Of a stretch of 64,000 bases of DNA, positions 51,734-55,332 are shown piece by piece. The stretch lies in sequence record PZ154895.1; one strand, 5' to 3'. How positions within the stretch are numbered: position 1 is the stretch's first letter; the number at the start of each line of letters is the position of its first letter. This stretch comes from a phage. The notes under the pieces are model-generated. The model ran no database searches. It saw only the letters and a list, made by a program, of their open reading frames with translations, and was not told where the DNA came from. The translations under genes were made by a program, and so were the position numbers.

Positions 51734-51954
51734 TGGCAAAGATAATTATTGAAGGTTCTAAAGATGTGCTAAATGCTTTCGCCGAATGGTTTAGTAATTC
51801 AGGCGAGCAGCAATTTAATGAAGCGTGGACCATGGGTGATATTGATGGAATTTATCCTACGACAGAAATTTCTGTTCAAGGATATGGCATTCATGAACCT
51901 ATTCGTTTAGTTGAATATGATTTATGTACTGGTGAGGAAGTAAAATATGATTGA
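51733..51954 (+). CDS. hypothetical small protein
   Basis: 73-aa ORF, ATGG overlap with upstream stop. Confidence 0.4.
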   Translation: MAKIIIEGSKDVLNAFAEWFSNSGEQQFNEAWTMGDIDGIYPTTEISVQGYGIHEPIRLVEYDLCTGEEVKYD

Positions 51955-52213
51955 AGATATTAAGGGTTATAAGCCACATACTGAAGAGAAAATCGGTAAA
52001 GTGAATGCTATCAAAGACGCTGAAGTTCGTTTAGGACTTATCTTTGATGCTTTATATGATGAATTCTGGGAAGCACTGGATAATTGTGAAGACTGTGAAT
52101 TCGCAAAGAATTATGCTGAAAGCCTCGATCAGTTAACTATTGCTAAAACTAAACTCAAAGAAGTCAGTATGTGGGCTTGTCGCGCAGTGTTTCAACCAGA
52201 GGAAAAATATTAA
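51947..52213 (+). CDS. hypothetical small acidic helical protein
   Basis: 88-aa ORF; vs.3-vs.8 region of T4. Confidence 0.4.
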
Positions 52214-52491: not shown

Positions 52492-52525
52492 CTGTTTACT
52501 TTTCCTCTTGACTGTGGTATAATTT
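52488..52525 (+). promoter_or_regulatory. T4-type early promoter upstream of regB
   Basis: -35 GTTTAC 52494-52499, -10 TGGTATAAT. Confidence 0.7.
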
Positions 52526-52550: not shown

Positions 52551-53012
52551 ATGACTATCAACACAGAAGTTTTTATCCGTCGAAATAAGCTCCGTCGTCA
52601 CTTTGAGTCGGAGTTTCGTCAAATTAACAATGAGATTCGTGAGGCATCAAAAGCAGCAGGGGTCTCATCGTTTCATCTAAAATATTCTCAGCATCTTCTT
52701 GATCGTGCAATTCAACGGGAGATTGATGAGACATATGTTTTTGAATTATTCCATAAAATAAAAGACCATGTTTTAGAAGTTAATGAATTCCTGAGTATGC
52801 CTCCGCGTCCTGACATTGACGAGGATTTTATTGATGGGGTTGAATATCGTCCTGGGCGTTTAGAAATCACAGATGGAAATCTTTGGCTTGGATTTACAGT
52901 TTGTAAACCTAATGCGAAGTTCAAAGACCCGTCGCTTCAATGCAGGATGGCAATTATTAACAGTCGTCGTTTACCAGGAAAGGCTTCTAAAGCAGTAATT
53001 AAAACTCAATGA
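52551..53012 (+). CDS. regB: RegB site-specific endoribonuclease
   Basis: 153 aa, exactly the T4 RegB size, own early promoter, position between denV and tk. Confidence 0.65.
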   Translation: MTINTEVFIRRNKLRRHFESEFRQINNEIREASKAAGVSSFHLKYSQHLLDRAIQREIDETYVFELFHKIKDHVLEVNEFLSMPPRPDIDEDFIDGVEYRPGRLEITDGNLWLGFTVCKPNAKFKDPSLQCRMAIINSRRLPGKASKAVIKTQ

Positions 53013-53019
53013 GGTAAGC

Positions 53020-53565
53020 ATGAGAAAAGCACTACTCGCTGGTCTATTGGCCATTTCAATGATGGCGCATAGCTCCGAGCATACTTTCAGTAATGTCCAA
53101 CTCGATAACATGCGTTACGCGTATCAATTCGGGGAACAATTTTCTAAGGATGGAAAATATAAAACACACAAAAATATCCACAAGAGCGGATTAGGTCATA
53201 TAATGGCTGCTATTTTATGGCAAGAAAGCTCTGCCGGAGTTAATTTAAAATCTAAACCAAAGCATCATGCCTACGGAATGTTCCAAAATTATTTGCCAAC
53301 TATGCGAGCAAGAGTTAAGGAACTTGGTTATAATATGACTGATGCTGAAATAAAAAGAATGTTGAATAAACGGTCCAATTCAGCTTCCTGGGCGTACATT
53401 GAACTTTCTTATTGGTTAAATATACATAAGGGTGATATAAGAAAAGCTATATCCTCTTATAACTCGGGATGGAATGTTAAAGCTGGTTCTAAATATGCTT
53501 CTGAAGTCCTAGAAAAGGCTAACTACCTTAAAAATAATAAACTTTTGGAAATAGTAAATGACTAA
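53020..53565 (+). CDS. secreted protein with signal peptide, lytic-transglycosylase-like
   Basis: 181 aa; N-terminal signal peptide MRKALLAGLLAISMMAHS; AILWQESSAG resembles a lytic transglycosylase catalytic-Glu motif. Confidence 0.5.
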   Translation: MRKALLAGLLAISMMAHSSEHTFSNVQLDNMRYAYQFGEQFSKDGKYKTHKNIHKSGLGHIMAAILWQESSAGVNLKSKPKHHAYGMFQNYLPTMRARVKELGYNMTDAEIKRMLNKRSNSASWAYIELSYWLNIHKGDIRKAISSYNSGWNVKAGSKYASEVLEKANYLKNNKLLEIVND

Positions 53566-53899
53566 AATTTTGGTTTTATGTATAGGATTAATTTCATTTT
53601 CTGCGTTAGCAAATACATCATATACTGAAATTAGAGAGTATGTAAACCGTACTGCCGCGGATTATTGCGGGAAAAATAAAGCATGCCAAGCTGAATTTGC
53701 GCAGAAATTAATATATGCATATAAAGACGGAGAAAGAGATAAATCAAGCAGATACAAGAACGATACTTTATTAAAACGATATGCTAAAAAGTGGAATACC
53801 TTAGAATGTTCAGTTGCGGAGGAGAAAGATAAAGCCGCCTGTCATTCAATGGTTGACCGTTTGGTAGATTCTTATAATCGAGGATTGAGTACTAGATGA
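53558..53899 (+). CDS. small secreted Cys-containing protein (signal peptide)
   Basis: 113 aa; signal peptide MTKILVLCIGLISFSALA; four Cys. Confidence 0.45.
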   Translation: MTKILVLCIGLISFSALANTSYTEIREYVNRTAADYCGKNKACQAEFAQKLIYAYKDGERDKSSRYKNDTLLKRYAKKWNTLECSVAEEKDKAACHSMVDRLVDSYNRGLSTR

Positions 53900-54375
53900 T
53901 TGTAAAATATATCAAGGGCGATATTGTCGCCCTATTTCTTCAAGGTAATATTATTGCGCACGGGTGCAACTGTTTTCATACTATGGGTTTAGGTGTAGCG
54001 GGTCAATTAGCAAGAGCCTATCCTAAAATTTTAGAAATAGATAAAACCACTACTGAGTACGGTTCTCGTGATAAATTAGGTGATATGTCTATTGTTTTTA
54101 AACATAATCCTGCAGGATTTGGTATATGCTATAACCTGTATACGCAATACGAACCGGGTCCTAATCTTGATTATGGTGCTTTAGTAAACTGCATGATAGA
54201 ATTAAATCTACAGGCAGAAACCCTTTTGTTTAAACCAGTAATTTACATTCCACGCATAGGTTGTGGTATTGCTGGCGGTGATTGGGATAAGGTTTCTAAA
54301 TTAATCGACATGTTTACTCCTGATATTGATTTAATAGTGGTGGATTATGAAAGTACATTACCCGCATCCGTTTGA
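53896..54375 (+). CDS. macro-domain-like protein (ADP-ribose binding/processing)
   Basis: 159 aa; GDIVALFLQGNIIAHGCNCFHTMGLGVAGQLA resembles the macro-domain N-terminal and Gly-rich loop motifs. Confidence 0.5.
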   Translation: MIVKYIKGDIVALFLQGNIIAHGCNCFHTMGLGVAGQLARAYPKILEIDKTTTEYGSRDKLGDMSIVFKHNPAGFGICYNLYTQYEPGPNLDYGALVNCMIELNLQAETLLFKPVIYIPRIGCGIAGGDWDKVSKLIDMFTPDIDLIVVDYESTLPASV

Positions 54376-54559
54376 TCCTAAAAATAAAGCGGAAATTATT
54401 CGACACTGGACCGAAACACGAGTAACTAAATGCCCTATAAAAAGTCAACACAATACCGATAAATGGTATATCGGCGAATATGTTGAATATACTTTTATAG
54501 ATAAAAATAAACGTAAACAGCATGTAGAAGAATATTGTTTAAAGGTGCAATGGTTATGA
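54347..54559 (+). CDS. hypothetical small protein
   Basis: 70-aa ORF overlapping neighbours; weak. Confidence 0.3.
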   Translation: MKVHYPHPFDPKNKAEIIRHWTETRVTKCPIKSQHNTDKWYIGEYVEYTFIDKNKRKQHVEEYCLKVQWL

Positions 54560-54741
54560 GTCTAAGCATTAGTCAGAAAAGTAGATTATTTGAGCTTATT
54601 CATGAGCTTTTGGATGAGCATACAGAAGCAAACACCTTTTATGATGAATACGGCCCGCTATCTCCCGAACAGCAGGAAGAATTTGCTGATCGGTTTGATA
54701 AGAAAGAAAATGAATTAATAGCTTATGTGAATACGCTTTAA
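54535..54741 (+). CDS. hypothetical small acidic protein
   Basis: 68-aa ORF directly upstream of tk. Confidence 0.35.
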   Translation: MFKGAMVMSLSISQKSRLFELIHELLDEHTEANTFYDEYGPLSPEQQEEFADRFDKKENELIAYVNTL

Positions 54742-54750
54742 GAAGGTGAT

Positions 54751-55332
54751 ATGGCGAGTTTAATTTTTACTTATGCAGCAATGAATGCTGGAAAATCTGC
54801 TTCTCTTTTGACTGCTGCACATAATTATAAAGAACGTGGAATGAGTGTATTAGTTCTTAAGCCTGCTATTGATACTCGCGATTCTGTCTGTGAAGTCGTT
54901 TCTCGCATTGGAATTAAGCAGGAAGCGAATATTATTACGGATGATATGGATATTTTTGAGTTCTATAAATGGGCTGAAGCACAAAAAGATATTCATTGTG
55001 TATTTGTAGATGAAGCCCAGTTTTTAAAAACTGAACAGGTGCATCAATTAAGCCGAATTGTTGATACATATAATGTTCCTGTTATGGCTTATGGACTAAG
55101 GACTGATTTCGCTGGAAAATTATTTGAAGGTTCTAAAGAACTTTTGGCGATTGCAGATAAACTTATTGAACTAAAAGCAGTTTGTCATTGTGGTAAAAAA
55201 GCTATTATGACAGCTCGATTAATGGAAGATGGAACACCAGTTAAAGAGGGTAATCAAATCTGTATTGGTGATGAAATTTATGTTTCTTTGTGTAGAAAAC
55301 ATTGGAATGAATTAACTAAAAAGCTCGGTTAG
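54751..55332 (+). CDS. tk: thymidine kinase
   Basis: 193 aa; P-loop AMNAGKSAS and C-terminal zinc-ribbon Cys pairs; size as T4 Tk. Confidence 0.9.
   Translation: MASLIFTYAAMNAGKSASLLTAAHNYKERGMSVLVLKPAIDTRDSVCEVVSRIGIKQEANIITDDMDIFEFYKWAEAQKDIHCVFVDEAQFLKTEQVHQLSRIVDTYNVPVMAYGLRTDFAGKLFEGSKELLAIADKLIELKAVCHCGKKAIMTARLMEDGTPVKEGNQICIGDEIYVSLCRKHWNELTKKLG

Follow-up and report, generated by a model that had tools for sequence, protein, structure and literature searches.

The tk.4 gene and its macrodomain product

The window analysed here is the whole stretch of 64,000 nucleotides (nt) of phage DNA from sequence record PZ154895.1, whose source genome is a Tequatrovirus. The element under study is the open reading frame (ORF) at positions 53896..54375, which encodes a protein of 159 amino acids (aa) beginning with MIVKYIKGDIVALFLQGNIIAHGCNCFHTMGLGVAGQLA and is the T-even gene tk.4 (adfM); many Tequatrovirus genomes match the tk.4 region at 96-97.5% identity. 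An earlier note, made from the letters of the sequence, had called this ORF macro-domain-like and had placed it in a regB-tk interval. Both descriptions hold, as the genes for RegB and thymidine kinase flank the interval, and Pfam, Protein Data Bank (PDB) sequence, profile and structure-prediction tests all bear out the domain assignment. The gene and the parts of its product on which the argument relies are, in positions of the window:

53896..54375, + strand: tk.4 (adfM-type) gene, ATG start, 159 aa, a stand-alone ALC1-like macrodomain (TARG1/DarG/SCO6735/Poa1p class)
53959..54000, + strand: loop 1 of the ADP-ribose pocket, H22-G-C-N25-C-F-H-T-M-G31-L32-G33-V-A35, with the conserved Asn and the G-x-G
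53989..53991, + strand: codon TTA for Leu32 of the G-x-G loop, a residue found in PZ154895.1 alone (TCA for Ser in every close relative)
54133..54147, + strand: motif N80-L-Y-T-Q84, with Q84 at the position of the catalytic Lys of TARG1 and DarG
54250..54285, + strand: loop 2 (diphosphate-binding), P119-R-I-G-C-G-I-A-G-G-D-W130, of the SCO6735/BT1257 type (PRIGCGLAGGxW)

Against the Pfam Macro model (PF01661), the protein scored 30.9 bits (gathering cut-off of 22, E-value of 2.8e-7), with residues 22-136 matching profile positions 2-117 of 118. A single-sequence search of the PDB sequences returned BT1257, yeast Poa1p, SCO6735, the M. tuberculosis DarG macrodomain and TARG1, and a profile of 83 homologues matched BT1257 (E-value of 1e-19), TARG1 (1e-16), SCO6735 (1e-15), Poa1p (9e-15) and the DarG proteins of M. 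tuberculosis (4e-12) and T. aquaticus (1e-10). The structure prediction that the earlier note had proposed as a check also gave a macro fold. Prediction by AlphaFold2 from the single sequence was unusable (predicted local distance difference test score, pLDDT, of 33) and the model based on the 83-sequence alignment was used instead (pLDDT of 93.8, predicted template modelling score of 0.89). The best Foldseek matches of this model in the PDB were TARG1, Poa1p, BT1257 and DarG, and the predicted structure has the three-layer alpha/beta/alpha arrangement of the macro fold. The motifs of the ADP-ribose pocket are present (N25, G31-x-G33 and G122-C-G124-I-A-G-G128) and are invariant or nearly so in the 83 homologues. 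Among macrodomains, these results place the protein in the ALC1-like class (TARG1/DarG/SCO6735/Poa1p). Within NCBIfam, two weak matches were obtained, the better one being DarG (equivalog model NF048014, 26.4 bits versus a cut-off of 250, with model positions 2-142 of 338 covered), and DarG was also the sole PADLOC match (26.6 bits), restricted to the macro part of the model.

In BLASTP, the protein aligns with T4 Tk.4 over 155 aa and without gaps (E-value of 9e-69, 57% identity, 73% positives). The T4 reference has tk.4 in the same slot (NP_049723, 155 aa), annotated as "phosphatase; contains A1pp phosphatase motif", and the family corresponds to PHROG 335 (E-value of 4e-70), which is named "phosphatase". 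Near-identical genes of other phages are already labelled "tk.4: macro domain-containing protein" or "macro domain protein", and tblastn found family matches in 2,746 of 50,697 phage records, spread over many genera.

The role of tk.4 against the DarTG2 defence system is already known for the T4 form. According to the HIDEN-SEQ preprint of November 2025, transposon sequencing of a T4 library propagated on DarTG2-expressing E. coli returned one significant hit, tk.4, which was renamed adfM (anti-DarT factor Macrodomain); its clean deletion makes T4 sensitive to DarTG2, and whereas T4 can do without the gene on plain K-12, it becomes conditionally essential when DarTG2, specifically, is present (bioRxiv 10.1101/2025.11.20.689424). 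The authors likened T4 Tk.4 to the M. tuberculosis DarG macrodomain and proposed that it removes ADP-ribose (ADPr) from DNA enzymatically (bioRxiv 10.1101/2025.11.20.689424). This result fits an earlier observation, namely that T4 and T2 lacking adfA and adfN were still resistant to DarTG2, which implied a further factor (PMC11825919). Thus, the anti-defence candidacy raised in the earlier note is confirmed as far as the T4 allele goes, and the experiment suggested there, a knockout on DarTG-bearing hosts, is already available for the T4 gene, with sensitisation to DarTG2 as the outcome. The Iyer/Aravind survey treats phage Macro domains in general terms only and does not mention Tk.4 (PMC9503650). 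The CmdTAC paper holds no link between T4 macrodomains and mRNA ADP-ribosylation, the word occurring only in its reference list.

Active site and known macrodomain relatives

The residues that are invariant in the 83 homologues, both T-even alleles of the gene (see below) included, are H22, G23, N25, G33, A35, D49, N80, Y82, Q84, P119, G122, G124 and W130, with N80 and Q84 retained in 83/83 family sequences. N25 aligns with the DarG Asn and with N23 of the PhiKZ AdfM protein, in which the N23A exchange reduced activity (PMC13309987). The position of Q84 is occupied by the Lys of TARG1 (K84) and of T. aquaticus DarG (K80, in an FPTK motif), an equivalence on which HMMER, MAFFT and hmmalign agree, and by a Gln in T4 Tk.4, BT1257 and SCO6735 (Gln85). 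Residue equivalences were otherwise taken from HMMER and hmmalign; the first MAFFT alignment misplaced the BT1257 loop. The loop following Q84 (YEPGPN) is shorter than the mobile loop of SCO6735, which carries K89, and contains no Lys.

SCO6735 (PDB 5E3B) and BT1257 (2AFC/2FG1), both Gln-type ALC1-like macrodomains, share the Gln at the Q84 site with the phage protein, whereas overall identity to it is about 26-29%. The SCO6735 loops AHVCND and PRIGCGLAGGTW align with AHGCNC and PRIGCGIAGGDW of the PZ154895.1 protein, corresponding to the HxCN and PRIGCGxAGGxW motifs, while D49 and Y82 are invariant residues of the phage family's own. SCO6735 is encoded by a bacterial DNA-damage-inducible gene and not by a phage gene. 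It cleaves thymidine-linked ADPr from single-stranded DNA (ssDNA) and protects S. coelicolor from DarT; the Q85A mutant lost all activity, and an activated water, rather than a lysine, was proposed for the reaction (PMC9411070). The thymidine-ADPr activity has been confirmed on synthetic substrates (PMC12879935), and the enzyme also takes uracil-linked ADPr (U-ADPr) off RNA (PMC13036486). In addition, the inactive Q85A mutant of SCO6735 still inhibits DarT by interaction, and both TARG1 and SCO6735 remove Glu-linked ADPr from proteins (PMC9411070).

Human TARG1/OARD1 (4J5R) has a K84/D125 catalytic dyad, where the PZ154895.1 protein has Q84 and, aligned with D125, Ala126. Compared with DarG (5M31 for T. 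aquaticus, 5M3I for M. tuberculosis), the phage protein lacks the C-terminal DarT-binding domain, all of its 159 aa belonging to the macrodomain, and there is no adjacent darT, the neighbours of tk.4 being vs and tk.3. Loop 2 reads PRIGCGIAGG in PZ154895.1 versus PPLGxGNGGLxW in DarG, and the VNTVN of DarG stands against HxCN in the phage protein. Yeast Poa1p (6LFQ) differs in being a small-molecule phosphatase with a longer insert. A bacterial homologue from Pelagimonas (P0090, 40% identity) has no darT nearby and is an orphan among housekeeping genes, and thus uninformative.

Another phage protein of this kind is gp104 of PhiKZ, which removes DarT2-made ADPr from DNA and rescues cells from DarT2, as shown biochemically (PMC13309987). 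It is a phage-encoded stand-alone macrodomain countering DarTG2, as is T4 Tk.4 by genetics. However, gp104 is of the Lys type (FPTK motif) and scores 137.8 bits against the DarG model, compared with 26.4 for the PZ154895.1 protein and 30.3 for T4 Tk.4, and BLASTP between gp104 and the PZ154895.1 protein gave 22 bits over 23 residues. Also, gp104 enters the phage nucleus, whereas T-even phages have none. The T4 and PhiKZ proteins were thus recruited independently of each other, both out of the ALC1-like class. The two share a name, "AdfM" having been given both to T4 Tk.4 (preprint, November 2025) and to PhiKZ gp104 (Cell Rep 2026). AdfB of ICP1 was considered as a relative and not used, since the respective paper describes it as mimicking an antitoxin and likely blocking DarT by direct interaction, and reports no de-ADP-ribosylase activity.

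Two alleles of tk.4 in a divergence island

The tk.4 gene is part of a run of genes on one strand that overlap or abut each other, in the order regB, vs.1, vs, tk.4, tk.3, tk.2 and tk, the same as in T4. The surrounding features are:

52495..52523, + strand: best-matching sigma-70-like promoter site (TTTACT-17-TATAAT, extended TG), shortly 5' of regB
52551..53012: regB (RegB PF10715, 230 bits)
53020-53565, + strand: vs.1 homologue, 181 aa, SLT domain protein between regB and vs
53558..53899, + strand: vs, valyl-tRNA synthetase modifier (PHROG 1256, E-value of 6.5e-40), upstream neighbour of tk.4
53915..53933, + strand (seen on both strands): hairpin of 8 GC-rich base pairs followed by a U-rich tract, inside tk.4 codons 7-13
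54347..54559, + strand: tk.3 (Pfam DUF7202, 126 bits), downstream neighbour of tk.4
54535..54741, + strand: tk.2 (Pfam DUF7438, 59.8 bits), last gene of the divergence island
54751..55332: tk, thymidine kinase (PF00265, 206 bits)

The ATG of tk.4 overlaps the TGA stop codon of vs (ATGA), and its last 29 nt overlap the start of tk.3. Compared with T4 gene by gene, the proteins encoded by regB, vs.1, vs, tk, rI.1, rI and rI.-1 are 96.5-100% identical (96.5% for Vs), whereas the values for tk.4, tk.3 and tk.2 are 55%, 71% and 44%, respectively. In a sliding nucleotide comparison, identity to T4 stands at 100% just 5' of tk.4 and drops to about 42-70% within the block, to regain 100% precisely at the start codon of tk (54751). 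This defines a divergence island of approximately 53930-54750 comprising tk.4, tk.3 and tk.2, with flanks that are 95-100% identical to T4 at the nucleotide level. The T4 gene tk.1 is absent in PZ154895.1, where the end of tk.2 (54741) is followed by tk from 54751; teqdroes and T2 carry extra small ORFs in the gap between tk.2 and tk.

Within this island, tk.4 occurs as one of two alleles. The PZ154895.1 and T4 forms share the slot between vs and tk.3, a near-equal length (159 versus 155 aa), the fold class, an identical N-terminus (MIVKYIKGDIVALF) with the first 38 nt identical, and all invariant pocket residues, N25 and Q84 included. They differ in being 57% identical at the protein and about 70% at the nucleotide level, in a four-residue C-terminal extension of the PZ154895.1 protein that overlaps tk.3, in loop 2 (C123/A126/G127 versus A/G/K in T4) and in Leu32 for Ser. 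Around 285 records match the 159-aa-type allele with at least 90% nt identity and around 250 more at 80-90%, the latter presumably carrying the other allele and aligning via the common 5' end. Judging from these matches, both alleles appear to be common, and about half of the matching Tequatrovirus records carry the 57%-identical alternative to the T4 allele. For the two alleles, the ratio of nonsynonymous to synonymous substitution rates (dN/dS) was estimated at about 0.3 at a nearly saturated dS, which argues that both are maintained as proteins. T2, a DarTG2-resistant phage, was ruled out as evidence for the 159-aa allele, since it carries the T4 allele (the two Tk.4 proteins are 100% identical at the aa level).

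At position 32, the 83 homologues have Ala (63 sequences), Ser (16), Gly (3) or Leu, the last in PZ154895.1 alone. Ser32 is found in ECO07P2, UFV-AREG1, N2, teqdroes and the 304-member cluster P0001; the ECO07P2 protein differs from that of PZ154895.1 at S32 only, and no phage record is identical (100%) to the latter. Leu32 may be neutral or adaptive, or may reflect a sequencing error. Relatives accommodate a long side chain here, DarG and SCO6735 having a Lys at the equivalent position.

The hairpin at 53915-53933 (AGGGCGATATTGTCGCCCT), with about -13 kcal/mol and flagged as terminator-like, is identical in PZ154895.1, T4 and T2, even though nt identity between the alleles drops to about 70% in the sequence that follows. 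Its role may be that of an attenuator or of an element for RNA stability, placed between vs and tk.4, or it may simply belong to the conserved 5' end that precedes the recombination boundary. The site at 52495..52523 is a possible early promoter for the overlapping regB-vs.1-vs-tk.4 run. The promoter scan of the region gave 13 sigma-70-like sites, versus 14.3 expected from shuffles, and hence no enrichment; as promoter-like sites do not exceed the shuffled expectation, early co-transcription is something that we only infer.

Some observations concern the genes further upstream. The vs.1 homologue has an N-terminal signal-like hydrophobic stretch and matches the SLT lytic transglycosylase model PF01464 with 23.4 bits (cut-off of 21.3). 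The name that several GenBank records give it, "endoribonuclease RegB domain-containing protein", seems to have been transferred in error from the neighbouring gene. Just 5' of the regB promoter region, an ORF of 88 aa (51947-52213, +) is 18.5% identical to T4 Vs.3 in a global alignment, and the region 5' of regB may thus carry another replaced or non-orthologous small gene.

Function of Tk.4 and alternative explanations

We consider it probable that tk.4 of PZ154895.1 encodes a macrodomain ADP-ribosyl glycohydrolase, most likely one that strips DarT2-made ADPr from thymine of phage ssDNA. The product would probably be made early in infection. The host toxin DarT2 of the DarTG2 defence would ADP-ribosylate thymine bases on single-stranded phage DNA, and Tk.4 would then strip the thymine-linked ADPr, so that phage replication could continue. 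In such a reaction, Gln84 would position the distal ribose and a water molecule, as in SCO6735, instead of the lysine mechanism of DarG and TARG1. The activity of Tk.4 would accordingly be an enzymatic removal of the mark, and an SCO6735-like chemistry is suggested by the invariant Gln at the site together with the SCO6735-type loop motifs. Because synteny and every invariant family and pocket residue are common to both alleles, the 159-aa allele would be expected to do the same job as the T4 allele. From the alignments, the most economical reading is that the T-even Tk.4 is a Gln-type SCO6735-like enzyme and not a strict DarG mimic, which is consistent with the low scores against the DarG model and with the 22-bit BLASTP match to gp104.

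Several points weigh against this explanation. The support for the role of T4 Tk.4 is genetic and comes from a preprint (bioRxiv 10.1101/2025.11.20.689424), and the allele of PZ154895.1 is only 57% identical to the T4 allele tested on DarTG2; in the literature, we did not find a DarTG2 test of any phage with the 159-aa allele. The catalytic Lys of DarG and TARG1 is absent from the protein, and the DNA-positioning residues K34 and K89/K93 of SCO6735 have no equivalents in it (K34 aligns with L32, a Ser in T4 and an Ala in most of the family). Leu32 itself, in the G-x-G loop, is unusual for the family. Moreover, the historical annotation of T4 Tk.4 refers to a phosphatase with an A1pp motif, and Poa1p, an ADP-ribose-1''-phosphate (Appr-1''-p, Appr1p) phosphatase, is an equally close structural neighbour.

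The last two points lead to the view of Tk.4 as a housekeeping small-molecule enzyme, either a Poa1p-like Appr-1''-p phosphatase or an O-acetyl-ADP-ribose deacetylase, that clears ADPr metabolites and has no part in anti-defence. Besides the T4 and PHROG 335 annotations, the HxCNC...G-x-G motif is close to that of Poa1p (IHSCNCNGSWGGG), and some sources call the homologues "O-acetyl-ADP-ribose deacetylase". However, such an enzyme leaves the DarTG2-specific phenotype of T4 unexplained (T4 does not need the gene on plain K-12), and the Gln84 that defines the family has its counterpart in a DNA hydrolase, SCO6735. Many macrodomains are weakly active on Appr1p in vitro without that being their role, and we know of no source of Appr-1''-p in T4 infection. 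We therefore regard a purely metabolic function as quite improbable. We give still less credit to a target among ADP-ribosylated proteins, modified by the phage enzymes Alt, ModA or ModB or by host toxins, or among the NAD-derived signals of the Thoeris type, a wider reading that the earlier note had put forward. The activity of TARG1 and SCO6735 on Glu-linked protein ADPr would fit a protein target, but the sole reported tk.4 phenotype is on DarTG2 and no experiment links tk.4 to Thoeris, and similarity to ThsA is far below that to the DarG/TARG1 group. The T4 ADP-ribosyltransferases modify arginine, and reversal of this mark by such macrodomains is not known to us.

A further possibility is that the 159-aa allele is specialised, either as a nucleic-acid de-ADP-ribosylase for other DarT2 variants or marks (e.g., U-ADPr RNA) or as a DarT blocker acting by binding. 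Such a division of labour would fit the sharp tk.4-tk.2 island (42-70% nt identity) amid flanks 95-100% identical to T4, as well as the frequency of both alleles among phage records. SCO6735 also sets a precedent for either activity, as it removes U-ADPr from RNA and its inactive mutant inhibits DarT by interaction, and T-even phages are known to have active and inactive Adf alleles depending on the DarT variant (PMC11825919). Nevertheless, both alleles have all the invariant pocket residues and the same loop behind Q84, and a dN/dS of about 0.3 corresponds to ordinary purifying selection. Mosaic islands are common in T-even genomes and do not imply a functional change. Given the conserved pocket, we do not favour specialisation and consider it unlikely, although less so than the two preceding alternatives, and we retain the glycohydrolase acting on thymine-linked ADPr of phage ssDNA as the preferred explanation.

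For annotation, the points on the alleles, the active site and the naming are useful, although they will not surprise a specialist. As the family lacks the catalytic lysine of DarG, the label "DarG mimic" is mechanistically imprecise. A bolder proposal, which we hold to be rather doubtful, is that the T-even AdfM represents an independent, lysine-free and Gln84-dependent solution to DarT2, of a descent separate from that of the DarG-derived AdfM of PhiKZ, with its two alleles specialised for different DarT2 variants or marks (e.g., U-ADPr RNA). If true, the tk.4 slot would be a polymorphic counter-defence locus, and the S32L change could belong to such tuning. More generally, DarTG blocks phages through ADP-ribosylation of their DNA, and host range is easier to predict once the phage genes that erase this mark are known.
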